From Deltaproteobacteria bacterium (GTDB taxonomy: Bacteria; Myxococcota; UBA727; VGSZ01), in assembly GCA_020850995.1 (NCBI GenBank), contig JADZDP010000016.1:420-64419 (forward strand): 64,000 nt of DNA, in the 5' to 3' direction. Under the pieces are notes generated by a model, which was not told the origin of the DNA, searched no databases, and was given only the letters and a program-made list of their open reading frames with translations. Positions within the stretch are counted from its first letter, which is position 1, and every line of letters begins with the position of its first letter. Both the position numbers and the translations under genes were made by a program. Shown piece by piece: positions 978 through 14,596 of this stretch.

Positions 978-3599
978 TCAGCGTGGCGTGTGGTGGCAGG
1001 CCGCGCACTTCTCGCTTTGGAACTCGTAGCCCGGCACGCCCTGGTGGTGCTCGGCCTCGATGGTCTCGTCGTGGCAGGTGGCGCAGATGACGGGGACGCC
1101 GACGCAGTTGCCCGTGAAGCGCGTGCCTCCGAGGTCGGTGTGGCACTGGCGGCAGTTGACCGCCCGGTGCGCGCCCGTGGAGATGGGGAAGCACACGTCG
1201 TGGGCCGTGAACTGGGCCGGCAGGAAGGTGGCGGCCACGTGGCAGTCGCGGCAGGAGCCGCTGGAGAAGGGCGGGCTGCGGTGATCCGTGGTGGCCTGGT
1301 TGGCCGCCACGACGTCGCGCTGGTGGCAGATGCCGCAATCGACCGCTGCGCGCGCGAAGGTGCGCTCGCGCTTCTCGAGGTGGCACTCGTCGCAGGGCAG
1401 GGCCGCGTGGCGGCCCGTGAGCGGGAAGTTCCCCATGCGGTGTGCGTCGACGTTGAAGCCCGGCGCGGTGAAGCCGTCGGTGCTGTGGCACGCCGCGCAG
1501 GCCAGGCCAAACTGCTGGCCATGCACGTCGGTGTGGCAGCCGGCGCAGGTCATGGGCACGGGCTTGGTGGGATCGCTGCCGTGGCAGATGCCGCAGCGGT
1601 TGGCCAGGTGCTTGCCCGTGAGCTCGAAGCCCGTGAGCTGGTGCTCGAATCGCGCCGGTGACCACCCGGTTGCCTGGTGGCACTCGCCGCAGTGCACCTC
1701 GGGCCCCGGTGACGCGGGCGCGACGTCTGCGGCGGTGGCCGCGGCCGGCTTTGGCGGCACGAAGCGGTCGTAGGCGCCCTTGTGTTGGTCGTCGTGGCAG
1801 GTGGTGCAGGCGGCGGGCAGGGGGCGGTAGCGGGCGAGCTTGGTGCCCTTGTTGTCGAGCGTTGGGTGGCAGCGCTCGCACTTGGCCTCTTGGTGCTTGC
1901 CCACCAGCGCGAAGCTCGTCTGCTTGTCGTGCTCGAAGGCGCCCGGCTTGAAGGCCTTGGTGGAGTGGCAGTCGCTGCAGTCGCGCGGCTTGGTGGCCGC
2001 GGCGGTGAATTGACCCACGTGGGCGTCGGCGTGGCACGACGAGCACGCGTAGGGCAGCAAGCGATAGGGCGTGGCCACTACCTCGTCGCCCTTGGGCGTG
2101 GGCGGCACGTGGCACGAGGCGCAGGTGGCCTCGGTGTGCTTGCCCGTGAGCGGGAAGCGGCTGTTGTCGTGCTTGAAGGTGGTCTCGGCGAAGGCCTTGG
2201 TGGTGTGGCAGTCGACGCATGCCTTCTTGGCGGCCCGCGTATCGGGCGGCTCTGCGGCCTTCTGGAATTGTCCGAGGTGCGGGTCGTCGTGGCACAGGTC
2301 GCAGTCGGCCTGCTGCACCTTGCCCTCGACCACCGCGACGACGTCGGGCATGCGAATGCGCGCCTGGCTGACCAAGAGCTGGCGCCCGCGCCGCGTGGCC
2401 TCGGCCTTGTCCTTCGGGCTGGTCTTCTGCAAGAGGCGCTGGTCGGGCTTGTGGCACTGCTTGCACGCCACCGTGCGGTGCGAGCCCTCCAGCGGGAAGT
2501 GCGTGGTCTCGTGCAGCTTGACGTCGAGGAGCACGGGGATGAAGCCGGTGACCTGGTGGCACTTCTCGCAGCGCACCGAGCCCTCGTCGAGCGGCATCTG
2601 GCCGAAGTGCGCGTCGAAGTGACAGTCGGAGCAGCGCCCGTACTTGACGCCCTTGTACTTGACGGGCTCGCTGCCGAAGGGGCCATGGCACAACTTGCAT
2701 GCCACGGACTGATGCTCGCCGCGCAGCGGGAAGCCGTATTTGTCGTGGAAGCTCGCGTTGATGCCCTTCTCGTTGATCGAGTTCCAGTCCTTGGGTGTAT
2801 GGCAACGCGCGCAGTTCGAGCCGTACGCGCCACGGTGGGGATCCTCGTGACACGCCACGCAGGACGCGTGCTCGATGTTCTTCACCTTGAGGTAGGTCTT
2901 GGCGCGCGGCTTGGGGAAGTCGGGCGCGGGCTTGGCGTCGGTGAGGGTCTCGTGGCAGTCACCGCACTTGACGTCTTTGTGCTTGCCGATGAGGGGGAAG
3001 CCACCCTCCTTCGGCTTGTTGTGGTCGAAGTCGGGCGCGTCCTTGAACTTCTCCGCCGTGTGGCATTTGTCGCAGCTCTTGCCCACCTGCCCGCGGTGCT
3101 CGTCGAAGTGGCAGGCCGCGCAGCGCTTGGACACGCCGAGGTAGGTCTCGCGGCCCACCTCCTTGACGAGGTTCTTCACGTAGGCGTCCTCGATGCGACG
3201 CAGCTCGTGGCAGTCCTTGCACTTCTGCTCTTTGTGCGGCCCGGTGAGCGGCCAGCCGGAGAGCCGGTGATTGAACTCGTCGCGCGAGGGCTTCCACTCG
3301 ATGATGCTCGCGTTGCGCCCGCGGTGCTCCTGGTGGCACTCGGCGCACTTCTGCGACTTGATCGACGAGTGGTAACCGGCGCCCGCCTCGAGGCGCTTGT
3401 TGATCTCGTCGTGGCACTCGAGACAGCGCTCGTCGCTGTGGCTGCTGCCCTCGATGTGGCACTTGGAGCAGCTCCGCATGCCCTCGAGCGAGGCGTGCGC
3501 CTTCGAGAGCGGCCCCGGGCTGAACACCTGCGCGCGCGCCACGCTCGCGCCGACCAGCGCCAGCGCAGCCACCAGCATGGCGGGTACGGCGAGGCGCAT
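978..3599 (-). CDS. 30-heme c-type cytochrome (cytochrome c3-like repeats), Sec signal peptide
   Basis: 873 aa. 30 CxxCH motifs counted by hand, arranged as repeated triheme modules. Signal peptide ending in AxA. Confidence 0.95.
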   Translation of the reverse strand: MRLAVPAMLVAALALVGASVARAQVFSPGPLSKAHASLEGMRSCSKCHIEGSSHSDERCLECHDEINKRLEAGAGYHSSIKSQKCAECHQEHRGRNASIIEWKPSRDEFNHRLSGWPLTGPHKEQKCKDCHELRRIEDAYVKNLVKEVGRETYLGVSKRCAACHFDEHRGQVGKSCDKCHTAEKFKDAPDFDHNKPKEGGFPLIGKHKDVKCGDCHETLTDAKPAPDFPKPRAKTYLKVKNIEHASCVACHEDPHRGAYGSNCARCHTPKDWNSINEKGINASFHDKYGFPLRGEHQSVACKLCHGPFGSEPVKYKGVKYGRCSDCHFDAHFGQMPLDEGSVRCEKCHQVTGFIPVLLDVKLHETTHFPLEGSHRTVACKQCHKPDQRLLQKTSPKDKAEATRRGRQLLVSQARIRMPDVVAVVEGKVQQADCDLCHDDPHLGQFQKAAEPPDTRAAKKACVDCHTTKAFAETTFKHDNSRFPLTGKHTEATCASCHVPPTPKGDEVVATPYRLLPYACSSCHADAHVGQFTAAATKPRDCSDCHSTKAFKPGAFEHDKQTSFALVGKHQEAKCERCHPTLDNKGTKLARYRPLPAACTTCHDDQHKGAYDRFVPPKPAAATAADVAPASPGPEVHCGECHQATGWSPARFEHQLTGFELTGKHLANRCGICHGSDPTKPVPMTCAGCHTDVHGQQFGLACAACHSTDGFTAPGFNVDAHRMGNFPLTGRHAALPCDECHLEKRERTFARAAVDCGICHQRDVVAANQATTDHRSPPFSSGSCRDCHVAATFLPAQFTAHDVCFPISTGAHRAVNCRQCHTDLGGTRFTGNCVGVPVICATCHDETIEAEHHQGVPGYEFQSEKCAACHHTPR

Positions 3600-3601
3600 G
3601 C

Positions 3602-6310
3602 TCAGCCGCCTCCCTGGAAGAAGAAGGCGCCGAACCCGTAGTACGCGGTCACCGCGACGTGGGCCGCGATCAGCACCACCATGAAGATGGCGGTGACGAC
3701 GTGGAACACCAGCCAGCTTCGGAAGATGCGCTTGAGCGTGGCGTAGAACGAGATCTGCATGCGCGCGCGCTGGATCTTCTCGAGCGAGTCCTTGAAGAAG
3801 TTGAACTGCTTGTCGTCGTTGAACAGCGGCCGCGCCTGATCGATCTGCTTGATGAGGGTCTGGCGCGTCTTGGTCTCTTTCATCATCGCCTGCGCCAGCG
3901 TCCGTTCGCGGGGCTGGATGGCGGCGAGGTCGAGGAGCTGGGTCACGGCCTTGACGTTCTTGGTCTGTTGGATGTGCGGCTGCAACACCTTCTCCATGTC
4001 GTTGACCTGCTCACGCAGATCATTGACCGCCAGCATCTTGCCCGCCTGCGCGGGCACCAGGCCGAACAGGAAGCGGCCGAAGATGCCGGTGGCGACGACG
4101 ATGGCGAGGGCCACCCAGGTCCACACCGCCAGCAGGTTGTTGACCAAGAAGGCCGCGTGGAAGGCGATGACCAGGGGGCTCATGATGCCGACGAACATAT
4201 GGAAGGTGAGCCAGGTGCGGATGGAGGCCTTGCCCTTGAGCGGCCGCCAGCGCTTGCGCAGGGCGTAGATGAAGTTGGCCAGCATGAACACGGTGGCGCC
4301 GACGCCCACGCCGTGGCCCCACAGCCCCGCCGGTTTCAGCAGGTCGTGCAGCGGCGCCTTGTTGCGCTCGTCGAGCGGCAGCCAGTAGTACTCGGAGCCG
4401 AGCAGGTAGCAGCCAACGTTGATGAGCACGCCCATGGCCGTGAGCGCCAGCGCCAGGCGCGTGCGCGTGCGCTTCTCCATGTCGGCCTTGGTCATGCCCT
4501 TGCCGCCGGCGACCTTCTCCTCGCCGTGGTACTTGCGCGACGTCACCTTGATGGAGGTGAGGAACTGCACGGGCAGCTCGCCGCCGATGGACACGATGAC
4601 GTCGTCGTTGGCCAGCACCGTCTCCTTGCCGTCGGTCTGCACCTCGGGCACGGCCACCTTGTGCAAGCCCGAGCCCACGCGCGCGGCGCGGTTGCCACCG
4701 TCGATGGCGTCGAGGGCCTTGGCGCTACCGCGCGCGATGACGTTGACGATGCCCTCGCGCCACAGGCCGGTGCGCGAGCGCGCGGCGCCCGGGGCCTGCC
4801 CTGGTGCCGGTGCGCCGGCTGCGCCCGCACCGCCGTGCAGCGCCGAGCCGCCACGGAACGGGTTGGCGCCCGCGCCCGCCGCCTTGCCGGGCAGGCCGGT
4901 GTTCGCGATGGTGAAGCGCTGTTTGGCGGCCGCCGCCGCCGCATCGACGTCGTCGACGCGGATGTCCATCACGGTCTTGGCGTTGGCGCGCGCGTCTTCC
5001 TCACCCACCAGCATGGACGCGTCGACCACGGCGGTGCCCGGGCGCGGCGGTCCCTTGGGGGCCTCGGGCGCCTTGGCCTTGTCGCCGCCCTTGCCCTTCT
5101 TGTCGTCGTCGCCAGAGGGGGCCAGGCGCACCGTCTTGGCGTCGATGCCCGTGACCTTGGTGCTGAAGTACGCCTTGATCTTGCCTTGATCGATGAGCGC
5201 CTTGATGTTGTCGCGGTTCCGCGGCTTGCAGCGCGAGAACGCGCCTTGCCGATAGGAGATGCTCACCTTGGCGGTGCTCTCCTCGGCGAGCTGGACGGCG
5301 GCCTCGACGGCGGAGTCGCCGCCGCCCACCACCAGTACGCTGCGCCCGTGGTACTGCTCGGGGTCGACGAGGCGGTAGGTGACCTTGGGGAGCTCCTCGC
5401 CCGCGCACTCGAGCTTGCGCGGTGAGCCGCGCAGGCCAATGGCGAGCACCACCGCGGCGCAGGCGATGCGCTCGCCGGCGGCCGTGACGGCGGTGAGGCG
5501 CGGCGCGTCCCCCTCCACGCTCACCACCTTCTTGCCTTCTTCGACGGCGAGCTTGTTGGACGAGATGACCTGGTAGATCTCACCCATCAGCTCTTCTTTC
5601 GAGAGGAGCTGGCGGCCGAAGGGGCCGAAGTTCGGCATCTTGACCTGCTCGGTCATCACCACCTTGCCGCGCGGGTAGTGCGCGATGGCGCCGCCCACGC
5701 TCTCCTGCTCGAGGATGCGCACGGACAGGCCGTTCTCTTGGCAGGAGATGGCAGCGGCGATGCCCGCCGGGCCTGCGCCCACCACCACCACGTCGGTGAA
5801 GTTGGGGCCGGCGTTGCTCTTCTTGACCTTTCCCTTGATGAACTTGCCGGCCACCAGGCCCTGGTAGAGGGCGTTCTTGATCAGGCCCATGCCGCTGATC
5901 TCGCCCACGATGAACACGCCGGCGCGGCTCGACTCGAAGTTCTCGTCGGTCTCGGGCAGATCGATGCCGCGCTCGGAGGTGCCGAACACGAGCTTGATGG
6001 CGCCCACCGGGCACTCGATGTCGCAGCGGGCGTGACCGATGCAGTCGGCGGCGTCCACCAGCGTTGCCACGCCGTCGACGACGCCGATGATGTCACCCTC
6101 GGGGCAGGCCTTGATGCAGGAGAACGAGCCCACGCACAGCGTGGGGTCGATGACCGGGTGCAGCGAGAGCGGCACCAATTGCCCCTCGGCCACCGCCAGG
6201 CGCAGGCGCTCGGCGCCCTCGCGTTCGGACTTCTTGCGCTGCATCAGCAGCACGATCACGGCCGCGGCCATGATCGCCAGGACAATTCCGGAGATGATCA
6301 GCTCGGTCAT
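3602..6310 (-). CDS. Membrane-anchored 2x[Fe-S] / FAD-NAD(P)H oxidoreductase (TrxB-like) fused to a His-rich multi-TM domain (putative heme b)
   Basis: Start re-assigned to MTELIISG (ATG 6310). N-terminal TM; CVGSFSCIKACPE and CIGHARCDIECP; GAGPAG and GGGDSA dinucleotide motifs; C-terminal TM helices with GHGVG, WLTFH, IAFH, WLVFH, IAAH. Confidence 0.9.
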   Translation of the reverse strand: MTELIISGIVLAIMAAAVIVLLMQRKKSEREGAERLRLAVAEGQLVPLSLHPVIDPTLCVGSFSCIKACPEGDIIGVVDGVATLVDAADCIGHARCDIECPVGAIKLVFGTSERGIDLPETDENFESSRAGVFIVGEISGMGLIKNALYQGLVAGKFIKGKVKKSNAGPNFTDVVVVGAGPAGIAAAISCQENGLSVRILEQESVGGAIAHYPRGKVVMTEQVKMPNFGPFGRQLLSKEELMGEIYQVISSNKLAVEEGKKVVSVEGDAPRLTAVTAAGERIACAAVVLAIGLRGSPRKLECAGEELPKVTYRLVDPEQYHGRSVLVVGGGDSAVEAAVQLAEESTAKVSISYRQGAFSRCKPRNRDNIKALIDQGKIKAYFSTKVTGIDAKTVRLAPSGDDDKKGKGGDKAKAPEAPKGPPRPGTAVVDASMLVGEEDARANAKTVMDIRVDDVDAAAAAAKQRFTIANTGLPGKAAGAGANPFRGGSALHGGAGAAGAPAPGQAPGAARSRTGLWREGIVNVIARGSAKALDAIDGGNRAARVGSGLHKVAVPEVQTDGKETVLANDDVIVSIGGELPVQFLTSIKVTSRKYHGEEKVAGGKGMTKADMEKRTRTRLALALTAMGVLINVGCYLLGSEYYWLPLDERNKAPLHDLLKPAGLWGHGVGVGATVFMLANFIYALRKRWRPLKGKASIRTWLTFHMFVGIMSPLVIAFHAAFLVNNLLAVWTWVALAIVVATGIFGRFLFGLVPAQAGKMLAVNDLREQVNDMEKVLQPHIQQTKNVKAVTQLLDLAAIQPRERTLAQAMMKETKTRQTLIKQIDQARPLFNDDKQFNFFKDSLEKIQRARMQISFYATLKRIFRSWLVFHVVTAIFMVVLIAAHVAVTAYYGFGAFFFQGGG

Positions 6311-6332
6311 CGGGTGGTCTTTTGCTGGGCCC

Positions 6333-8042
6333 TCAAAGGGAGCCGGTGACGGACACATCGGCCATGCCGTTGGTCGGCGTGGCCCGTACTTCGCCCCCGA
6401 GGGACGGCAAGGCTTGCGAGCCAAACAGGCGCGTGCGCACCGAGAGCCACGGCAGGATGGGCGCGTCCGCCCACACGCTCATGCCGAGCTCGCGATACCA
6501 ATCGCGAGGCGCCTCGCTCTCGTAGTAGGTGGCGCGGGTCGCGAAGCTCAGGAAGGGGAAGCGCAGGCGCGCCGACACCCACGCGTTGCGGCCGGGGATT
6601 CCGCCCGGCACCTCGACGTCGTTCTTGATCTTGGTGAGCCCGAACTCCTCGATGTAACCGAGCTGCATGCCGCCAGCGTCGCCGAACATGGTGGGCAGCT
6701 CGAGCTGCGGGCCCACGAAGGCGCGCGTGGAGTCCGATTGGGTGTTGTACGCGACGCTGCCGCTGGCGCCGAAGCCGAACCACGGCACCGGGCGGTAGGC
6801 GGTGAGCGCGCTCAGGTCGTGGCCGCCCTGGGCCCGCGGGATACTGGCGCCGTTGAAGTCGAGATCGAGGGGCGGTGCTGCGTTGTAGCGGTAGCCGGTC
6901 CACAGCGTGAGCTCGGGCACGACGCCGAGCCCGGCGTCGACGCTGGCGGCGTCGATGGAGGGCAGCATGTCGGCGGTGCCACCGATGCCGGTCTTGATGG
7001 AGCCGCCCACGTTGCCGACGCCGCGCCAGTACACCTGCGTCTGGGCCAGCGCCTCGCCACGCAGGTACTGGAAGTCGGGCGAGCTGATGACCCCCAGGCG
7101 CGCGCGCGGCACCACGGAGACGCCCTCCATGGGGCGCAGGTCGACGCCCACGTAGGCGCCGCCCGCCAGGCGATCGAGCGAGGGCGCGATGGTGATGAGG
7201 TCGGGGATGGCGCCAGCGTAGAGGCCGACCTCGGTGGTGTCGTCGAGGAAGCGCAGGCCGGCCTGCGCGCCGTCGAGCAGCAGCACGCCGGGCACGTTCT
7301 GGGCGTAGAAGCGACCGAGCTGGCCCACCACGAAGCCGTCGCGCATGCCCACCGACAGGCCCCAGACGTAGAGCTCGACGAGCTCGCCCGGGCGCGCGCG
7401 CTGGTTGTTGGGCGCGATCAGATCGCTGTTCACCCGGAACGAGGCGCTGGTGAAGAACTGCGGCGCGGCGCTGAAGCCCACGTCGAAGTAGCCGTCGACC
7501 GAGGTGCGCCCATAGGTGCCGTTCGGCGTGGTGGAGGCGTGCCACAGCTCTTGGCGCAGCGTGGTGCGGCCCTGGAGCGCGATGCCCGCGCTCGAGACGT
7601 CGTGCTTGACGCGCTCCACCGGGAGCTGCGCGAGCTGTTCGCGCAGCTCGCGCTCTTGGCCCGCGCTCATCATGGGCGGCAGCACCTTGGGCTCTGGCTT
7701 GGCCGCCTCGGGCGGCGGCGTGAACGCGAAGGTGAACTTGTCGCCCGGCGCGGCGCGATCGCTGCTGCACAGGGCCGCGGTGGGCGACACCTCCACCACC
7801 TGGCAGGGGCCCACCGGCTTGCTGCGCCGCGAGAGCTGCAATTCTTGGCCCACGGCGACGCCCTGCTTGGCGCCCACGTCGAGGTAGGCGGCCTTGGCCG
7901 TGGTGTACGTGACCTGGCCGTCGGTGGCGGCGGCCGTCAGGCTGACGATGGCGGAGAGCCCGACGACGCTGCTGAGCACCAAGAAACTCCGCGGACCAAG
8001 GGGTGGGTGGTCATGTTGCGACAGACCCCCCGTCCGGATCAA
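6333..8042 (-). CDS. Probable outer-membrane beta-barrel with a small N-terminal FlgT_C-like domain
   Basis: 569 aa, TTG start (exact start uncertain). Hydrophobic signal-like segment; YLDVGAKQGVAVGQELQLSR domain; alternating amphipathic strands up to the C-terminal ADVSVTGSL. Lies between cytochrome genes. Confidence 0.7.
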   Translation of the reverse strand: MIRTGGLSQHDHPPLGPRSFLVLSSVVGLSAIVSLTAAATDGQVTYTTAKAAYLDVGAKQGVAVGQELQLSRRSKPVGPCQVVEVSPTAALCSSDRAAPGDKFTFAFTPPPEAAKPEPKVLPPMMSAGQERELREQLAQLPVERVKHDVSSAGIALQGRTTLRQELWHASTTPNGTYGRTSVDGYFDVGFSAAPQFFTSASFRVNSDLIAPNNQRARPGELVELYVWGLSVGMRDGFVVGQLGRFYAQNVPGVLLLDGAQAGLRFLDDTTEVGLYAGAIPDLITIAPSLDRLAGGAYVGVDLRPMEGVSVVPRARLGVISSPDFQYLRGEALAQTQVYWRGVGNVGGSIKTGIGGTADMLPSIDAASVDAGLGVVPELTLWTGYRYNAAPPLDLDFNGASIPRAQGGHDLSALTAYRPVPWFGFGASGSVAYNTQSDSTRAFVGPQLELPTMFGDAGGMQLGYIEEFGLTKIKNDVEVPGGIPGRNAWVSARLRFPFLSFATRATYYESEAPRDWYRELGMSVWADAPILPWLSVRTRLFGSQALPSLGGEVRATPTNGMADVSVTGSL

Positions 8043-8051
8043 CCTGCGCGA

Positions 8052-8996
8052 TCAGCAGGGTCCCTTATTGCTCGGGGTGCAGCCTTCACCGTGCGGGGAG
8101 CTGTGGCAGGCGGCGGTGCAGTTGATCTCACCGTAGTTGATGGACCACTCCTTTGGCGGGTCGAGCCGCTGGGTGTGACAAACCCTGCAGTGCGCGGGTC
8201 CCCAGTGGTTCGTGCCGTACCCCGCCGAGATGCCCGTGAGGCCGTTGTGGAAGGTCTCGAAGGGCGGGGGGAACACGCTCGAGAGCGGCGTGGTCGAGTG
8301 GCACTCCCGGCAGCCGTTCGTGTCGTCGTTGGCGTCGTACATTGGCGCGATGGTGCTGGCGCTGTGCGCCGTGTTCGTCAGCACCCCGTAGTTCTGCAGG
8401 TGGCACTCGCTGCACAGCGTCAGCGACGGATCGCCGCCGCCATCGCTATGGCAGCTCTCGCACGAGACGCCGCCGTGGGTGTCGCCGGCGCCTGGATCGA
8501 CGGGAAAATACGGTGCGTGGTCTGCGGCCGAGAGGTTCCAGTTGGCCCCCTCGCCCTCGCCCTCGCCCTCGCCGTCGCCGCCACCGCCGCTCTGGCAGTA
8601 ACGCTGGCCGCAGGAGTGGCAGCCGTAGCAGTAGCTCTCTTCGGCACGGTACGCCGCTCCGCGCGGCAGGTGCTTGGTCCTCAGGGCCTCGGTCCCGGTG
8701 ACGGTGTTATGGCAGGCGACGCAGTTGAATTCCGCGAAGCTCGCCCTGCCACCGTGGCAGGCCTCGCAATCGAGCGTCCCAGCGCCGACGACCGCACGAT
8801 TGAGCGCATGCTTGTCGCCCGGCCCGATGGGGAAGAGCTCCGCGTGCCCAACGGTGGCGAAGTCGTCGGGGAAGCCCGTGGTCATCGGGGGTGCCGGACC
8901 CTCCTCGGGCGTGCAGGCCGCCGCAGCCACGAGGGCCGCGACGGGCGCAGCGACGAACAGGAGAATCGCCACGGGCAGCAGGGAGCGCGTGCGCAT
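8052..8996 (-). CDS. Multiheme c-type cytochrome lipoprotein (7 CxxCH + 1 CX3CH)
   Basis: Lipobox AAAA-C; CEACH, CVACH, CYGCH, CESCH, CSECH, CRECH, CRVCH, CTAACH. Confidence 0.9.
   Translation of the reverse strand: MRTRSLLPVAILLFVAAPVAALVAAAACTPEEGPAPPMTTGFPDDFATVGHAELFPIGPGDKHALNRAVVGAGTLDCEACHGGRASFAEFNCVACHNTVTGTEALRTKHLPRGAAYRAEESYCYGCHSCGQRYCQSGGGGDGEGEGEGEGANWNLSAADHAPYFPVDPGAGDTHGGVSCESCHSDGGGDPSLTLCSECHLQNYGVLTNTAHSASTIAPMYDANDDTNGCRECHSTTPLSSVFPPPFETFHNGLTGISAGYGTNHWGPAHCRVCHTQRLDPPKEWSINYGEINCTAACHSSPHGEGCTPSNKGPC
8548..8577. repeat. In-frame hexamer tandem repeat encoding a Gly-Glu linker
   Basis: 4x CCCTCG plus CCGTCG, encoding GDGEGEGEGEG on the minus strand. Confidence 0.85.
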
Positions 8997-9120: not shown

Positions 9121-10857
9121 TCACACCGAGATCGAGCCCTTGCGGAACTCCGTGGTGCCGATGTGCACATTGACCACCACCGGGAAGCCTTCGGCGGCCC
9201 AGGCCTTGGCCTGCCGCAGCGCCGGGCCGCACTGCTCCTCGCTGGTGATGGCGATGCCCTTGCCGCCGAGCGCCTCGCACACCTTGTGGTAGTCCGAGCG
9301 CCCCAAGGCGGTGGCGACGTCGTCTTTGAGCAGCTCCACTTGATCGCGCGCGATCTGCGTCCAACAGGCGTCGTTGCCGATGACGGCGATGACCGGCAGG
9401 CGCTGACGCACCAGGGAGTCGAGCTCGGCCATGGACCAGCCGAAGGAGCCGTCGCCAAAGATGAGCCAATGCTCACGCTCGGGCCGCAGCGCCTTCGAGC
9501 CCATGGCGAAGCCGGCGCCCACGCCCAGGGTGCCGAACACGCCCGGATCGAGCCACGAGAGCGGCGCTCGCGGCCGCACGATGTAGGCCGCCGTGCCGAC
9601 GAAGTCGCCGCCGTCGGCGATGAGCACGGCGTCGGGGGCCAGGGCCTCGTCGAGCGCGCGGCAGAAGGCGAGCGGGTTGACGCCGCCCTTGCAGGGCTCC
9701 GCCGCGTCGCTGGCGATCTTCTGGTCGCGCTGGCGGTCGCGCAGGAGCAGCTGCTCACGCCACGCGTGGTAGCGATCGCCTTCGCCGAGCTCAGTGGCCA
9801 GGCCCACCAGGAACGCGCCCGCGTCGCCGGCGGCCGCGATTTGCGGCCAGCGGTTCTTGTGCAGCACGCGCGGATCGCGCCCCGCGGCGATGTACGTGGC
9901 CTTGCGCGCGATGTGCATGCCGTAGTCGAGGCGGAAGTCGGCCGGCGTGCCTGCCAGGATGACGAGGTCGGCCTCGCGCAGCGCCTCTTTGCGCTTGTGG
10001 CGCACCTGCAGCGCATGACTGCGCCCAAGCAGACCGCGCGCCATGCCGCTCAGGTACACGGGCGCGCCGATGCGCTCGAGCGCGCGCGCCACGTCGTGCG
10101 CGCGGGCGGGCTCGGCCATGGTTTGGCTGCCGACCACGATGACGGGCCGCTCGGCTGCGGCGAGCGCGTGCGCGGCGGCCTTGACCTTGTGGTGCGGCGC
10201 CACGCGCACCTCCACCTGCTCGGGCGTGGCGCGCACGCTGGCGGCGTCGGCGGGCAGGCCGGCGAACACGTCCTCGAGGTGGCGCTTGAGGTAGAGCCCG
10301 AGCGCGCGCTCTGGCAGCGTCTTGCCCTGGCCCTTGGCCAGGGTCCACGAGCGCACGATCTCCTCGGGGTAGAGAAGGTCGATGGGCAGCTCGAGGAACA
10401 CCGGCCCGGGCACGCCGCTCTTGGCGCGCGCGAAGGCCTCGACGAGCAGGGGGGCGATCTCGCGCACCTTGGTGGCGCGGGCGCACCACTTGGTGCAGGG
10501 CTGAAAGAGCGCGAGCTGATCGATGTCTTGCAGCGCGCCGCGCCCCTTGAGCAGCGTGGCGGTGGCGCCGCCGAGCACCACGACGGGCGACTCGGCGAGC
10601 TCGGCGTTCTTCACGGCGGTGATGACGTTGGTGCAGCCGGGACCGGCGGTGACGGCGGCGACGCCGGGGACGCCCGTGAGGCGCGCCGTGGCGTCGGCGG
10701 CGAACACCGCGGTGACCTCGTCGCGCACGTCGATGACGCGAATGCCGCGCTGCTTGGCGCCGACCAAGATCGGCGAGATATGGCCGCCGATGAGCGTGAA
10801 CAGTGAGCGCACGCCGTGCGCCAGGAGGACCTCACCAACGATGTCGCCGCCGTGCAT
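9121..10857 (-). CDS. Thiamine-diphosphate enzyme, ILVBL/HACL2-like (acetolactate synthase-like)
   Basis: [32 protein letters not shown], and the ThDP motif GDGSFG...GNDACW. Confidence 0.88.
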
Positions 10858-10910
10858 GTGCTCCCCATGAGACGCTGCGCGCGCCAGGGCAATCGGGTAG
10901 CTTGGCGCCC

Positions 10911-11522
10911 ATGCAGCAGCGCACTCCGCGCTCGCTCGCCGCGTTCTCGCGGCGCGGCTTCCTCATCGGCTCGGCGAGCGCGCTGGCGGCGCTGGGCGCG
11001 GGTGTCGCCCTCGTCATGCGCGGTGACCCCGCCGCCTATCGCGAGCTGGTGCGCTTGCCCGACGGCACGCTGCCCACGCCCGTGCGGCTCTCGATCAAGG
11101 AGCTGGCCGTGCTGAGCGCGCTGTGCGACCGGCTGGTGCCCGCAGGCAACGGCCTGCCGTCGGCCAAGGAGCTCGGCATCGCGCGGCGCGTCGACCGCGA
11201 GCTCGCCTTCCTGCGCGACAAGATGAGCGACGACGTCAGGGGCGCCCTGTTCCTCATCGAGCACGGCGGCGTGGCGCACGGCAGCGCGTCGCGCTTCTGC
11301 GCGCTCGACGACCCGGGCAAGGACGCGCGGCTGGCAGCCATGTGGGGCGGTGGAGCGCTCGAGCGATCGTGTGTCGCTGGCATGCGCATCCTGGCGCTGT
11401 TCTTCACCTACGTCGATGATCGCACCTGGCCGCGCATCGGCTACAGCGGGCCGCTGGTGGGCCACCGGTCGACCCCAGCCGCCGACTCGTCCGTGCTCGC
11501 GCTGACGCGGAGCGCAGGATGA
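10911..11522 (+). CDS. Gluconate 2-dehydrogenase subunit 3-like protein with twin-arginine signal
   Basis: Start at ATG 10911; SRRGFLIG Tat motif; IGYSGP C-terminal motif; ATGA overlap with the GMC gene. Confidence 0.75.
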   Translation: MQQRTPRSLAAFSRRGFLIGSASALAALGAGVALVMRGDPAAYRELVRLPDGTLPTPVRLSIKELAVLSALCDRLVPAGNGLPSAKELGIARRVDRELAFLRDKMSDDVRGALFLIEHGGVAHGSASRFCALDDPGKDARLAAMWGGGALERSCVAGMRILALFFTYVDDRTWPRIGYSGPLVGHRSTPAADSSVLALTRSAG

Positions 11523-13123
11523 GGCCCGAGCTCGTCGAGCGCATCCTCGAGTTCGGCGCCGTGACGGGCAGCCGCAACGAGGAGGTCGACGCGGTGGTGG
11601 TGGGCTCGGGTTGTGGCGGCGCCGTCGTCGCCAAGGAGCTGGCCGGCGCCGGCTGGTCGGTGCTGGTGCTCGAGCGCGGCGGGCTCTATCTCGCCGAGCG
11701 CGGCGACTTCGACCAGCGCGAAGACGACATGATGGCCAAGCTCGGCGCCGGGCGCGGCCTCGACACCACCGTCGATGGCGGCACCGCGGTCTTGGCCGGC
11801 AACAACGTGGGCGGCGCCAGCGTGCACTATTGGGCCGACTCGCACCGCCTGCCGCGCGATCGCTGCGAGCTGTTCGCGCGCGAGCACGGCGTGCAGCACC
11901 GCTCCTACGACGAGCTCGTGCCCTGGTTCGAGCGCATCGAGCGCGATCTCAACATCCACGAGGCGCCCGACGAGCTGAGGAACCGCAACAACTGGCTGTT
12001 CCTCGAGGGCGCGCAGCGCATCGGCCTCGAGGTCGAGCGCGTGCGCCAGGCGCGCAAGAACTGCGTGCGATCTGGCTACTGCATGCAGGGCTGCGCCTAC
12101 GACGCCAAGCAAAGCCAGCTCGTCACCTACGTGCCCGAGGCGCTAGCGCGCGGCGCGCGCTTGTTCGCCGACTGCGAGGTCGAGCGCGTCCTTGTCGAGG
12201 GAGGGCGCGCCGTGGGCGCGCAGGCGCGCTTCCTCGACCGGCGCAGCTGCGAGCCGAGCGGCCATACGCTGACCGTGAAGGCCAAGCGCGCGGTGGTCGT
12301 GGCGGCTGGCGGCTTTTCGACGGCGCCGCTCTTGATGGCCTCGGGCATCGCCGATCGCTCCGGGCAGCTCGGCAAGAACCTGCAGATGAACCCCGGCATG
12401 CGCACGCTCGGCATCTTCGACGAGGACGTGGTGCAGTGGCGCAACATCCCGGCGGCGGTGGGCTGCCTGCAGCACCGCCTGGCGCGCTACGACGAGCAGG
12501 GGCGCTACCTCGAGGGTGGCTTCCTGCTCTACCCCGATCAGCTCCAGCCGGCGTCGCTGGCGGCGTGCCTGCCGGGCTATGGCGAGGGGCACCGCGCGCT
12601 GATGGAGCTGGCGCCCAAGATCGGCGCGGTGACCTCGTGGATCGACGAGCGCTTCGCGGGCACGGTCACCCTGGGCGACGACGGATTGCCGCTGTGGGAC
12701 TTCCCCATCGTGGGCGAGGACGCCGACAAGTTTCGTCACGCCATCACGCTGCACGCGCGCATCCTGCTCGCCGCCGGCGCGCGCGAGGTGATCGTGCCCG
12801 ACCGAACGCTGCGGCGAGTCGACGGCAGGTGGGTGGTGGGCGCGCGCATCAAGGACGATCGCGAGATCGATGCAGTGGTCGCACAGGTGGACCTGTCGCC
12901 GGGCTCGATCTTCTACGCGGCGCCGCACCCGGCGGGCGCGGCGCGCATGGGTGGGTCGCCCGACACGTCGGTGCTCAACAGCGACGGCGAGGTGTGGAGC
13001 ACGCCGGGGCTCTACGTGGCCGACCCGAGCGCGTTCCCCACCGTGGTGTCGGTGGACCCGAGCGAGTCGATCATGGCGTGGAGCTACGTGACCGCCACGC
13101 GCATGCTCGAGAAGCGCGGGTAG
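11519..13123 (+). CDS. GMC family FAD oxidoreductase
   Basis: VVVGSGCGG, GNNVGGASVHY, CMQGC, HPAGAARMG and GLYVADPSAFP motifs. Confidence 0.92.
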   Translation: MRPELVERILEFGAVTGSRNEEVDAVVVGSGCGGAVVAKELAGAGWSVLVLERGGLYLAERGDFDQREDDMMAKLGAGRGLDTTVDGGTAVLAGNNVGGASVHYWADSHRLPRDRCELFAREHGVQHRSYDELVPWFERIERDLNIHEAPDELRNRNNWLFLEGAQRIGLEVERVRQARKNCVRSGYCMQGCAYDAKQSQLVTYVPEALARGARLFADCEVERVLVEGGRAVGAQARFLDRRSCEPSGHTLTVKAKRAVVVAAGGFSTAPLLMASGIADRSGQLGKNLQMNPGMRTLGIFDEDVVQWRNIPAAVGCLQHRLARYDEQGRYLEGGFLLYPDQLQPASLAACLPGYGEGHRALMELAPKIGAVTSWIDERFAGTVTLGDDGLPLWDFPIVGEDADKFRHAITLHARILLAAGAREVIVPDRTLRRVDGRWVVGARIKDDREIDAVVAQVDLSPGSIFYAAPHPAGAARMGGSPDTSVLNSDGEVWSTPGLYVADPSAFPTVVSVDPSESIMAWSYVTATRMLEKRG

Positions 13124-13130
13124 CGCTTCG

Positions 13131-14477
13131 TCAAGGTCCGCGCGGCGCCACGTCGTCGGGGGCGGGCCAGCCCGGGCTCGCGTCGAGCGGCTTGGCGTGC
13201 AGCGTCGGCAGGTGCTGCGGGTCCCACGCGCCCTCGCTCTTGGCCACCAGCGTCACGCAGGTGAGGTCGCCGAGCACGTTCACGGTGGTGCGCGCCATGT
13301 CGAGGATGCGATCGACGCCGAGCACGATGGCGATGCCTTCGCCGGGCACGCCGAACATCGCCAGCACGCCAACCAGCAGCGGGATGGAGCCGCCCGGTAC
13401 GCCGGCGGCGCCCACCGCGGTGATGACCGTCAGCGCCACCACCAGGGCCATCTGCGCCACCGAGAGATCGACGCCGAACACCTGGCACAGGAACAGCACC
13501 GTGACGCCCTCGAACAGCGCGGTGCCATTCATGCACATGGTGGCGCCGAGCGGCAGCACGAAGCCGGCGATCTTGGCGGGCACGCCGAGCTGATCCTCGG
13601 CCACCGCGATGTTGGTCGGCAGGGTGGCGCTCGATGACGACGTGGAGAAGGCAGTCACCAGCGCGGTCTTCACGCGGGCCAGGAACAGCGCGGGCGACAG
13701 GCCCACCAGGCCGCGCACGACCACCAGCACGAGGAGGGTCGCGTGCAGCAGCAAGCCACCGAGCACCAGCGCGGCGAACAGCCCGAGCGGCCGCAAGAGC
13801 GCGAAGCCGAAACGCGAGGTGACGCCGAAGATGAGCATGGCCACGCCAACGGGCGCGAGGCGCATGGCCAGCTCGACGAGCTTGACCATGACGTCGTTGA
13901 TACCGCCGAGCACGTCGACGAGGGCGCGGGCGCGCTCTTTGTCGATGAGCGTGAGCGCGGCGCCGAAGGCCAGCGCGAAGAAGATGACGCCGAGCATGTC
14001 GCCGTCGACGGCGCTCTTGATGGGATTGCGCGTGACGATGGCGACGAAAGTCTCGATGCCCACGCCGCCTGCCTTGGCGGCCGCCACCTTGCCCGAGGCG
14101 TCGGTTGCGTAGGTCGCCATCAGCTCTGCGCGCACCGCCTCGTGGAGGGCGGCGCCGGGCGCCACCACCAGCGCCAGCACCAGGCCGAGCCCGCCGGCCA
14201 CCGTCGTACTGGCGAGGAAATACGCCAGCGTCTTGCCGCCGAGGCGCCCCACCCGGCGCAGGTCGCCGATGCCGGCGACGCCGAGCACGATGGACGCGAA
14301 CACCAGCGGCATCACCACCATGAACATCAGGCGCAAGAACACCTGGCCAACGGGGCCGGCGATCCAGGTGTTGAGGAAGACGACGGCGTCGCTCTTGGGG
14401 CCGAAGCCGACGTTGGCGGCAGCGCCGAGCGCCGCGCCGACGAGCAGGCCGAGCAGGATGCGCGTGGGCAGGGGCAT
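13131..14477 (-). CDS. Dicarboxylate/amino acid:cation symporter (DAACS, GltP-like)
   Basis: AFSTSSSSATLP and GATMCMNGTALF signatures. Start re-assigned to MPLPTRILLG. Confidence 0.93.
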   Translation of the reverse strand: MPLPTRILLGLLVGAALGAAANVGFGPKSDAVVFLNTWIAGPVGQVFLRLMFMVVMPLVFASIVLGVAGIGDLRRVGRLGGKTLAYFLASTTVAGGLGLVLALVVAPGAALHEAVRAELMATYATDASGKVAAAKAGGVGIETFVAIVTRNPIKSAVDGDMLGVIFFALAFGAALTLIDKERARALVDVLGGINDVMVKLVELAMRLAPVGVAMLIFGVTSRFGFALLRPLGLFAALVLGGLLLHATLLVLVVVRGLVGLSPALFLARVKTALVTAFSTSSSSATLPTNIAVAEDQLGVPAKIAGFVLPLGATMCMNGTALFEGVTVLFLCQVFGVDLSVAQMALVVALTVITAVGAAGVPGGSIPLLVGVLAMFGVPGEGIAIVLGVDRILDMARTTVNVLGDLTCVTLVAKSEGAWDPQHLPTLHAKPLDASPGWPAPDDVAPRGP

Positions 14478-14596
14478 GGCGGCGGCAGCGTACACTGCGC
14501 TTGGTGCGGTTGGGGGGCCGACCCTGCGGTGCCGTGCGGCCGTTGCGACGAGGAGCGTCCGGGCCTACTGCGATGGCGCGCCCACGAGGACCATGC

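Follow-up and report, generated by a model that had tools for sequence, protein, structure and literature searches.

A fused NAD(P)H-type flavoprotein and candidate dihaem cytochrome b as a possible cytoplasmic entry to PCC3-like conduits in Myxococcota

A single polypeptide encoded in a Myxococcota genome joins a membrane-anchored Fe-S flavoprotein to a candidate dihaem cytochrome b, and its gene is directly followed by that of a 30-haem cytochrome c. With moderate confidence, this fusion is read here as a single-chain inner-membrane oxidoreductase that would form the cytoplasmic entry of a PCC3-like porin-cytochrome conduit. The membrane part appears to be of an already known kind, the IMP of PCC3/PCC4 clusters, and what would be new is its flavoprotein-linked variant.

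Gene identification and genomic context

The window, a stretch of 64,000 nucleotides of contig JADZDP010000016.1, carries the fusion gene P0003 at positions 3602 to 6310, stop codon included; this gene and all features located below lie on the reverse strand. As the initial annotation had stated, the region is one stop-free open frame. It encodes 902 amino acids in the order TM anchor, ferredoxin-like domain, TrxR/YpdA-like FAD/NAD(P)H module and five-helix membrane domain. The N-termini of homologs align with the ATG at 6310, and a longer frame with a TTG start, reaching to 6424, was rejected on this agreement. Third-position GC content remained between 0.92 and 1.0 in every segment, both domain junctions included. 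The fusion family comprises 626 homologous protein clusters and, as judged from sequence, the conservation depth of its residues is far beyond chance.

The concern that the fusion might be an assembly or frameshift artefact uniting two genes was not borne out. Its source genome is a MAG in 269 contigs, and short stand-alone matches on short contigs are mostly fragments, both of which would fit such an origin. Nevertheless, an artefact was given next to no credence. The same uninterrupted frame recurs across many independent assemblies and sources, a paralog is encoded in the same genome, and a sister genome of the same genus carries a single frame, 87% identical to the fusion, on a 243-kb contig. 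The coding signal is also continuous along the gene, and simple read-through cannot yield the fusion because the split operons have the opposite order, with the b-type gene first.

These split operons are found in Ignavibacteriota/Bacteroidota, where each half has a gene of its own, next to that of the other, in 43 of 44 long loci. There, a TM-anchored Fe-S flavoprotein that is 39-45% identical to residues 1-437 of the fusion adjoins the b-type gene. Myxococcota normally carry the fused form, and this gene is therefore no exception in its phylum. The initial statement that the two modules usually occur as separate adjacent genes thus holds for Ignavibacteriota/Bacteroidota. The Myxococcus carrier is an aerobe, a point against our main reading, since its physiological acceptor is then less easily named.

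P0002 (978 to 3599), a periplasmic multihaem cytochrome c with 30 CxxCH motifs, begins 2 nt past the fusion stop codon. Six fused loci were read, and each has a multihaem cytochrome of 20-30 haems directly downstream, overlapping or a few nucleotides apart. Among the split loci listed, 24 of the first 25 continue to a 20-haem (or split) cytochrome and another multihaem one. The unit is directly followed by an ortholog of P0002 at the paralog locus and also in Myxococcus and Ignavibacteria (E 7e-105 to Ignavibacteria), and P0002 also matches HmcA, weakly. On the other side of the fusion, P0004 (6333 to 8042) encodes a secreted protein of 569 aa without a Pfam match, a candidate outer-membrane barrel that is 29% identical (E 1.5e-40) to the 607-aa product of the last gene of the Myxococcus cluster. 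It is followed by P0005 (8052 to 8996), a multihaem protein with 7 CxxCH motifs whose N-terminal hydrophobic stretch ends in Cys and was taken for a lipoprotein signal. P0006 (2 to 637), the 5' part of another cytochrome c gene that leaves the window, likewise encodes a hydrophobic N-terminal stretch with Cys at its end. Since the fusion sits just upstream of a 20-30-haem cytochrome, it looks like a direct route from cytoplasmic electrons to a cell-surface conduit.

Anchor, ferredoxin-like and flavoprotein modules

The N-terminal TM helix noted initially was confirmed by hydropathy and by an AF2 helix. The anchor covers residues 3-23 (6242 to 6304), is followed by RKK and is predicted to run N-out, C-in; in the AF2 model of the fusion, the N-terminal helix spans residues 2-41 with a pLDDT of 85-95. 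The separate flavoprotein of the split operons carries the same kind of anchor.

The ferredoxin-like domain (5990 to 6160) matched Fer4_10 at residues 51-101 with 28.5 bits against a cut-off of 25.5. Its two motifs read C59-x2-S62-x2-C65-x3-C69-P (CxxSxxCxxxCP) and C90-x2-H93-x2-C96-x3-C100-P (CxxHxxCxxxCP). Among 121 fused homologs, the six motif Cys and H93 are invariant, and S62 is kept in at least 90%. While the domain is present as proposed, both motifs are atypical and differ from the two CxxCxxCxxxCP of a 2x[4Fe-4S] bacterial ferredoxin. Their second Cys is replaced by Ser/Thr or His, in Ignavibacteriota/Bacteroidota too. The three-Cys sites may hold 3Fe-4S clusters, or 4Fe-4S clusters with Ser/His ligands.

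The FAD/NAD(P)H module occupies residues 171-400 (5111 to 5800). The initial description of a TrxB-like module with GGGDSA and then SYR agrees with a Pyr_redox_3 match at residues 175-396 (E 1e-37) and with the motifs GAGPAG, GGGDSA and SYR at residues 178-183, 329-334 and 352-354, respectively. GGGD is invariant in the 121 fused homologs. PDB sequence and fold searches placed the module closest to YpdA/Bdr (7a7b) and TrxR-type ferredoxin-NADP reductases, and Foldseek with the full-length model returned matches to the flavoprotein fold only. The scores remained far below the curated cut-offs of TIGR04018, the YpdA/Bdr bacillithiol disulfide reductase family (136.2 against 339.9 bits), and of the thioredoxin reductase model TIGR01292, TRX_reduct (66.7 against 343.45 bits). 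No CxxC redox dithiol was found among the invariant columns of the homolog alignment. The module thus shares the two-Rossmann-domain fold of YpdA/Bdr and TrxR-type ferredoxin-NADP+ reductases (7a7b, 3ab1, 3lzw, 6gar) and, like the latter, is without the CxxC of TrxR; unlike them, it is membrane-anchored and joined to its own ferredoxin-like acceptor and a membrane cytochrome. NADPH is probably favoured over NADH, a choice based on two features, GxGxxA and the Arg after strand beta-2.

A low-complexity, Ala/Gly/Asp/Pro-rich insertion follows at residues 401-560 (4631 to 5110) and is predicted to be disordered from pLDDT and composition, with a GC3 of 0.92. It interrupts an NAD(P)H-domain hairpin, and the AF2 pLDDT is below 50 over residues 406-556, roughly 150 aa. 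Homologs of ~745 aa do without it; it is present, though divergent, in a clade of long paralogs of 900-990 aa only. The return strand and last FAD-binding piece are formed by residues 561-600 (4511 to 4630; NDDVIVSIGGELP), in which N568, D569, G576, G577 and P580 are conserved and which align in the split flavoproteins.

Membrane domain

Residues 616-902 (3605 to 4465) form the membrane domain, a candidate dihaem cytochrome b. Where four TM helices had been described, the AF2 models and hydropathy agree on five, at residues 608-642, 663-687, 697-722, 726-750 and 833-892 (pLDDT 89.6, pTM 0.78 for the domain model). A total of 2017 representative proteins matched the domain at E <=1e-3, and many of them are stand-alone proteins of ~290 aa. 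A homolog search with the membrane domain alone retrieved, for the most part, pieces of fused genes from short contigs.

TM3 (4145 to 4222) carries W700-x3-H704-x13-H718 and TM5 (3635 to 3724) carries W866-x3-H870-x13-H884, and all six residues are invariant in the 121 fused homologs. TM4 ends in T741-G-x-x-G745-R746 just ahead of a cytoplasmic insert of AF2-predicted helices between TM4 and TM5 (residues 752-860; 3731 to 4057). In the same homologs, G742, G745, R746 and P753 are invariant and T741 is kept in at least 90%. Conservation of H704, H718, H870, H884, W866, G742, G745 and R746 extends without exception to 36 sequences that include stand-alone proteins of 23-29% identity; stand-alone relatives are 285-300 aa long with SGxxG on TM4. 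Of the five His initially described as conserved-looking, these four proved invariant, while the fifth, H666, is L, Q or Y in some homologs. A periplasmic loop with YY..P...R and WGHG is also conserved.

Because RKK follows TM0 and RKRWRPLKGK follows TM2, H704/H870 are placed near the cytoplasmic ends and H718/H884 near the periplasmic ends of TM3 and TM5. The predicted topology therefore has two His pairs at matching depths on two parallel helices, and the domain probably binds two haems b.

Comparison with known systems

The closest published description is that of the IMP of PCC3/PCC4 porin-cytochrome clusters, with ~300 aa, five TM helices, [S/T]GxxG on TM4 and Wx3Hx13H on TM3 and TM5 (He, Barco, Emerson & Chan 2017, PMC5566968). 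Residues 616-902 have the size and the five helices, both Wx3Hx13H motifs and, in the place of SGxxG, T741-G742-I-F-G745 on TM4. By signature and architecture, the domain is therefore a candidate member of the IMP class, whose groups with a common signature need not show detectable sequence similarity (PMC5566968). The IMP gene is a neighbour of genes for a putative porin and for very large multihaem cytochromes, both periplasmic and extracellular (PMC5566968). The parts list in the window is alike, with cytochromes bearing lipoprotein-like signals, a putative barrel, the IMP domain and the 30-haem cytochrome. In contrast to the PCC3 IMP, the domain is here the C-terminal part of a protein that also contains a ferredoxin-like domain and an NAD(P)H flavoprotein. 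In PCC3 papers, the inner-membrane component is listed as a conserved hypothetical protein, with quinone coupling as a conjecture; He et al. proposed a quinone-active dihaem b protein and, for PCC3 in iron oxidisers, electron uptake (PMC5566968). PCC3 was still termed functionally unverified as of 2025. Among the top-ranked titles and abstracts of the full-text literature searches, none was found to describe a flavoprotein-IMP pairing; the closest was He et al. 2017, in whose main text the IMP has no named flavoprotein partner and is tied to quinone coupling and iron oxidation (PMC5566968).

The initial annotation had compared the fusion with the logic of NOX/ferric reductases built from different parts. 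In NOX/FRE, a cytoplasmic NADPH dehydrogenase passes electrons over two stacked bis-His haems b on parallel helices to an outer-side acceptor, and the His pairs are 13-14 residues apart; H704/H718 and H870/H884 are each 14 apart. In the MsrQ-like FRD comparison set, the pairs are H84/H98 and H160/H173, with H-x13-H and H-x12-H spacing. Module order, predicted topology and paired His fit the comparison. The parts themselves differ: the NOX/FRE dehydrogenase is FNR-like (FAD_binding_8/NAD_binding_6), whereas the fusion has a TrxR/YpdA fold with a ferredoxin-like domain, five helices with a distant N-terminal anchor, and a cytoplasmic insert of ~110 aa. The acceptor is O2 or an Fe(III) chelate in NOX/FRE, while a multihaem cytochrome is proposed for the fusion.

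Homology of the membrane domain to NOX/ferric-reductase domains could not be shown. Ferric_reduct (PF01794) matched residues 669-754 below threshold; the membrane domain alone scored 22.6 bits, under the cut-off of 28, and sub-threshold matches occurred in 6 of 38 relatives. An alignment of 34 ferric-reductase/MsrQ-like sequences, built from a relative's PF01794 gene, was compared with the family by hhalign and gave a probability of ~1%, whether run locally or globally; in the top local alignment, which was not significant, TM2-3 (RKRW..W..H..H) fell on the FRD TM4-5 region. Foldseek with the membrane-domain model returned no significant PDB match, with the NOX5 TM domain (5o0t) at rank 21 (probability 0.33). 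PDB profile searches gave only coiled-coil noise from the helical insert for the whole domain and no match for TM1-4 alone.

Weak family matches among the 38 relatives were to DUF4405 (11), Ferric_reduct (6) and also Ni_hydr_CYTB and PepSY_TM, all below Pfam cut-offs. For DUF4405 (PF14358), the best relative reached E 0.0014 and the window protein had no match. Searches of 41 related genomes with PF14358 and PF01794 returned few canonical members, not enough for further comparison profiles. DUF4405, PepSY_TM (FoxB-like), MsrQ-like proteins and FezC are small membrane cytochromes with four central His that pass electrons to extracytosolic redox proteins, and haem b binding was shown for DUF4405 and FezC (PMC11334425). 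The partners of the DUF4405/FezC type are flavinylated proteins, without multihaem cytochromes c and without a fused NAD(P)H module, unlike the arrangement described here.

Discussion

In the mechanism that we infer from sequence, in its haem binding, NADPH choice, direction of flow and quinone independence alike, the soluble modules would face the cytoplasm and FAD would be reduced by NAD(P)H, probably NADPH. Single electrons would pass from FAD through the two Fe-S sites to the cytoplasmic-side haem b (H704/H870), then to the periplasmic-side haem b (H718/H884) and the 30-haem periplasmic cytochrome, and onward to the cell surface with its putative barrel and putative lipoprotein cytochromes. 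Such export would be electrogenic and helped by the membrane potential, would itself conserve no energy, and could serve redox balancing or the reduction of extracellular acceptors. The NADPH-FAD-FeS-haem b transfer proposed at the outset is put forward here as the best-supported reading, in view of module order, predicted topology, the missing CxxC, the His pairs, the fused and split forms and the cytochrome next door. A more specific proposal is given about an even chance. In it, the unit would act as an NAD(P)H:multihaem-cytochrome oxidoreductase that needs no quinone and feeds PCC3-type conduits directly, a bacterial counterpart of NADPH oxidase in which a flavoprotein of TrxR fold and a pair of non-canonical Fe-S sites are combined with a dihaem b domain of the IMP type.

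Transmembrane paths of related layout are known from the Hmc/Tmc complexes of sulfate reducers, in which a cytoplasmic Fe-S protein is linked through a membrane cytochrome b to a multihaem cytochrome c in the periplasm. Those complexes have an HdrD-like cytoplasmic subunit and inward flow toward sulfate reduction, without an NAD(P)H flavoprotein, and we take their membrane subunits to be unrelated to the membrane domain of the fusion.

The dihaem-b domain could instead be a quinone reductase or quinol oxidase, in which case the unit would be an NAD(P)H:quinone oxidoreductase, or quinol would reduce the cytochrome with the flavoprotein as a side entry. This is considered unlikely, though it follows the published model of the IMP class as a quinone-active cytochrome b (PMC5566968). 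It also draws on the conserved periplasmic loop and on Proteobacterial PCC3 clusters, which have been described without a flavoprotein partner, so that the membrane domain can function without one. However, a quinone reductase needs no closely coupled 20-30-haem cytochrome, yet one is present in all the fused loci and in all but one of the split loci counted above. Moreover, no quinone-site motif was identified in the domain, and H666, the sole extra conserved His, is not invariant.

Inward uptake, in which Fe(II) or a cathode would donate electrons that reach NAD(P)+ via the multihaem cytochromes and haems b, has the proposed role of PCC3 in iron oxidisers in its favour, and the chain is in principle reversible. 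It is nonetheless quite improbable for the fusion. The potential of NAD(P)+, at ~ -320 mV, is far below that of Fe(II) or typical bis-His haems, inward electron movement opposes the membrane potential, and the operon is without a coupling module such as an ion-translocating or bifurcating partner. The carriers are, furthermore, heterotrophic Myxococcota and Ignavibacteriota/Bacteroidota. Even less credible is a membrane-anchored disulfide or low-molecular-weight-thiol reductase (YpdA/TrxR-like), or another flavoenzyme, with the cytochromes as incidental neighbours. While YpdA and TrxR are the best family matches, their scores fall far under the cut-offs and the conserved CxxC is absent. The Ala of GAGPAG presumably stands at the position of YpdA's Cys, which also counts against a thiol reductase. 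In addition, conservation across phyla extends to the Fe-S domain, to the membrane domain with its His and to the neighbouring cytochrome.

With the whole inner-membrane step in a single polypeptide, the fusion would be attractive for expression, spectroscopy and structure, and it could be a compact part for electron-export engineering. Together, the fused and split forms name a cytoplasmic partner of PCC3-type conduits, an NAD(P)H-type Fe-S flavoprotein. Such a partner would imply outward, quinone-independent export in hundreds of species of Myxococcota and Ignavibacteriota/Bacteroidota; Ignavibacteria with many large multihaem cytochromes have been reported as abundant on anodes. If true, extracellular electron transfer would have a fourth kind of entry at the inner membrane, in addition to the CymA-, ImcH- and CbcL-type quinol oxidases. 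This entry would be widespread, fused in Myxococcota, the aerobic Myxococcus among them, and encoded by a gene pair in Ignavibacteriota/Bacteroidota.

Gene structure and fused and split forms

The window has a GC content of ~70%, and the fusion gene occupies an uninterrupted 902-aa frame at 3602-6310 on the minus strand, with GC3 at 0.92-1.0 in each segment, module junctions included. A longer frame starting at TTG 6424 was rejected, as homologs begin at the Met encoded at 6310. A word-indexed search returned 626 homologous clusters. The best 120 of these (719-991 aa) had identical precomputed domains and came from NCBI, JGI, ENA, and Logan assemblies, with one Myxococcus isolate genome among them. 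The window's own genome also carries another copy, of the short type (~750 aa; contig C183:8357-10618, minus strand), and a same-genus genome has a single ORF 87% identical to the fusion. The frame, the even GC3, the clusters, the paralog, and the sister ORF bear out the single-chain fusion reported by the initial annotation. An assembly or sequencing artefact, its own proviso, is contradicted by the independent assemblies, the own-genome copy, and the sister ORF; the fusion gene is not an artefact.

The modules had been described as usually forming separate adjacent genes, which holds for Ignavibacteriota and Bacteroidota, whereas the fused form is the norm in Myxococcota. With the membrane domain alone as query, an exhaustive search retrieved 2017 representative proteins, including many that are complete and stand alone at ~290 aa. 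Scanning species genomes gave at least 593 loci with stand-alone-type proteins, the best 80 of which all belonged to Ignavibacteriota/Bacteroidota. Full flanks were available for 44 loci, and at 43 of these a gene within 2 kb downstream of the stand-alone membrane-domain (b-type) gene encodes a TM-anchored Fe-S flavoprotein with 39-45% identity to residues 1-437 of the window protein. In these split operons the b-type gene comes first, opposite to the domain order of the fusion, which is therefore no read-through of the split arrangement.

About half of the Ignavibacteriota/Bacteroidota loci, including L002:6854-7486 and L067:6864-7493, encode a ~210-aa single-TM protein between the b-type and flavoprotein genes. 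It shares 42% identity between two loci, has no counterpart in fused proteins, and is missing from the other split operons. Other architectures of the flavoprotein/membrane unit occur in the related proteins P0185 (873 aa) and P0218 (582 aa), one in which an FHA domain separates the Fe-S module from the flavoprotein module and one apparently without the Fe-S domain. Relatives' genomes also hold frames of 660-685 aa that match in the membrane domain only. Many 'same order' genomes measure only 0.3-3 Mb compared with 5-8 Mb in the window's family, an odd spread for one order, and the relatives table lists the fusion in none of the small ones.

Flavoprotein and Fe-S modules

Pyr_redox_3 matched residues 175-396 (E 1e-37). 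The module had been called TrxB-like, and in sequence and fold it is nearest to YpdA/Bdr (7a7b) and TrxR-type ferredoxin-NADP+ reductases. The best NCBIfam matches stay below their cut-offs, YpdA scoring 136 bits where 340 are required and TrxR 67 where 343 are, so that the fusion belongs to neither family, and no conserved CxxC was found among its homologs in alignments including 121 of them. NADPH is the probable donor, judging from GGGDSA (residues 329-334) and from the following strand, which ends in the invariant R354 with no acidic residue ahead of it. An Ala/Gly/Asp/Pro-rich insertion (residues ~401-560, pLDDT <50) lies between the NAD(P)H domain and the final FAD-binding segment (NDDVIVSIGGELP, 567-580). 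Only one clade of homologs, 900-990 aa long, carries this disordered insertion; the usual length is ~745 aa.

Both Fe-S motifs of the initial annotation are present, and Fer4_10 matched residues 51-101 above the Pfam cut-off, yet the domain is atypical: the motifs read C59-x2-S62-x2-C65-x3-C69-P and C90-x2-H93-x2-C96-x3-C100-P. Across 121 homologs none of the six Cys varies, nor does H93, and S62 is at least 90% conserved; the same Ser/Thr and His substitutions also occur in the separate flavoproteins of Ignavibacteriota/Bacteroidota. In ferredoxins, losing the second Cys, the one replaced here, leads to 3Fe-4S clusters or to ligation by residues other than Cys.

Membrane domain

Confident AF2 models of the full-length fusion (pLDDT 77, pTM 0.67) and of residues 605-902 alone (pLDDT 89.6, pTM 0.78) predict five helices (608-642, 663-687, 697-722, 726-750, and 833-892) in place of the four first described, with a helical insert of ~110 aa between TM4 and TM5. 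Basic stretches past the N-terminal anchor (RKK) and past TM2 (RKRWRPLKGK) place the soluble modules and the TM4-TM5 insert in the cytoplasm by the positive-inside rule, and TM3 and TM5 would therefore both run from inside to outside. H704 (TM3) and H870 (TM5) lie near the cytoplasmic ends, and H718 and H884, 14 residues on, near the periplasmic ends. Of the five conserved-looking His, these four are invariant in 121 fused homologs, together with W700, W866, G742, G745, and R746, while the fifth, H666, gives way to L, Q, or Y in some sequences. Adding stand-alone proteins of only 23-29% identity leaves the four His, W866, G742/G745, and R746 without exception. In sequence terms, two stacked bis-His haems would be expected to show such a pattern.

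In iron oxidisers and other Proteobacteria, PCC3 and PCC4 porin-cytochrome clusters were described as encoding a porin together with very large cytochromes, both periplasmic and extracellular, and an inner-membrane protein (IMP) classed as conserved hypothetical. The IMP measures ~300 aa, has five TM helices, and carries SGxxG on TM4 and a Wx3Hx13H motif on each of TM3 and TM5 (He et al. 2017, PMC5566968). Every element of this signature is matched by the window's membrane domain. In PCC4 subgroup II an Fe-S gene adjoins the IMP and is annotated once as a fusion, while FAD is absent from the main text (PMC5566968). Later papers still term PCC3 functionally unverified and its IMP merely an "inner-membrane protein".

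The proposed NOX/ferric-reductase-like logic holds on paper for the wiring, though the tests made did not show that the unit belongs to that superfamily. Ferric_reduct matched residues 669-754 below the Pfam cut-off, and family members gave only sub-threshold matches to DUF4405, Ferric_reduct, Ni_hydr_CYTB, and PepSY_TM. Nothing significant was returned by hhalign of the family against the ferric reductase domain profile, by PDB profile searches with the membrane domain, or by Foldseek with its model. DUF4405, PepSY-like, MsrQ-like, and FezC proteins are four-His membrane cytochromes related to one another in structure, with haem b demonstrated for DUF4405 and FezC (PMC11334425).

Partner cytochrome and neighbouring genes

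The fusion stop codon is followed after 2 nt by the ATG, preceded by GGAGG, of an 873-aa cytochrome c gene with 30 CxxCH motifs. The C183 paralog likewise precedes a 30-haem cytochrome, 47% identical to the window's, and three further fused loci on megabase contigs have the same overlap-coupled cytochrome. Downstream of the fusion in Myxococcus sp. RHSTA-1-4 come a 20-haem and a 10-haem cytochrome, which jointly align with the window's 30-haem protein. One gene (window 978-3599) thus corresponds to two Myxococcus neighbours (L001:12226-14939), so that the giant cytochrome itself undergoes fusion or fission from one lineage to another. Among the first 25 Ignavibacteriota/Bacteroidota operons listed, 24 have a 20-haem cytochrome after the flavoprotein gene (split into smaller genes at two loci) and usually a 16-41-haem one after that. 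The 20-haem protein of one compared locus shares 34% identity over 579 aa with the window's (E 7e-105). As fused and split loci share this cytochrome, the inner-membrane unit and the cytochrome family form a conserved pair across phyla.

The gene for a 569-aa secreted protein without Pfam match (6333-8042) ends 22 nt upstream of the fusion gene, and its 607-aa homolog (29% identity, E 1.5e-40) ends the Myxococcus cluster, where an 11-haem cytochrome is also encoded after the 20-haem and 10-haem ones. The 569-aa protein may represent a new porin family in such conduits. With a 7-haem and a further cytochrome of the window, both with lipoprotein-like signals, its putative barrel would complete the porin-cytochrome parts list. 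Flanking genes encode a TPP-dependent enzyme, a gluconate 2-dehydrogenase subunit-3-like protein with a GMC oxidoreductase, and a dicarboxylate symporter (9121-10857, minus; 10803-13123, plus; 13131-14495, minus), with no obvious tie to the conduit found. The C183 copy neighbours genes at 5784-8567, 10650-11441, and 11442-13880; upstream lie a conserved ~265-aa secreted protein without Pfam match and a gene homologous to that in the matching position of L092. Loci L090 and L092 carry the same pair plus an FHA/sigma-54 activator, and the large gene of the L090 pair has a Ser/Thr kinase domain, suggesting that the short paralog is regulated through a kinase and sigma-54.

Proposed electron path

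Building on the observed anatomy, conservation, fused and split forms, and cytochrome coupling of the family, NAD(P)H would reduce FAD, which would hand on single electrons, by way of both Fe-S sites, to a haem on the cytoplasmic side (H704/H870). They would then pass to the periplasmic haem (H718/H884), the 30-haem cytochrome, and the outer membrane. Such export would run downhill to typical haem potentials and be assisted by the membrane potential. Inward electron uptake, its reverse, ranks low because it would be uphill on both counts and the operon holds no coupling module. The main rival to direct transfer has the b domain trading electrons with quinone, as He et al. already proposed for stand-alone IMPs, which they suggested to be quinone-active and to hold two haems b (PMC5566968).

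The initial observation is thus confirmed with corrections, and its reading as direct transmembrane transfer from NADPH is partly supported. The fusion gene is of real interest to the extracellular electron transfer field on two counts: it gives the PCC3-type inner-membrane protein a named partner in the cytoplasm, and its product is a single chain that biochemical work can target.
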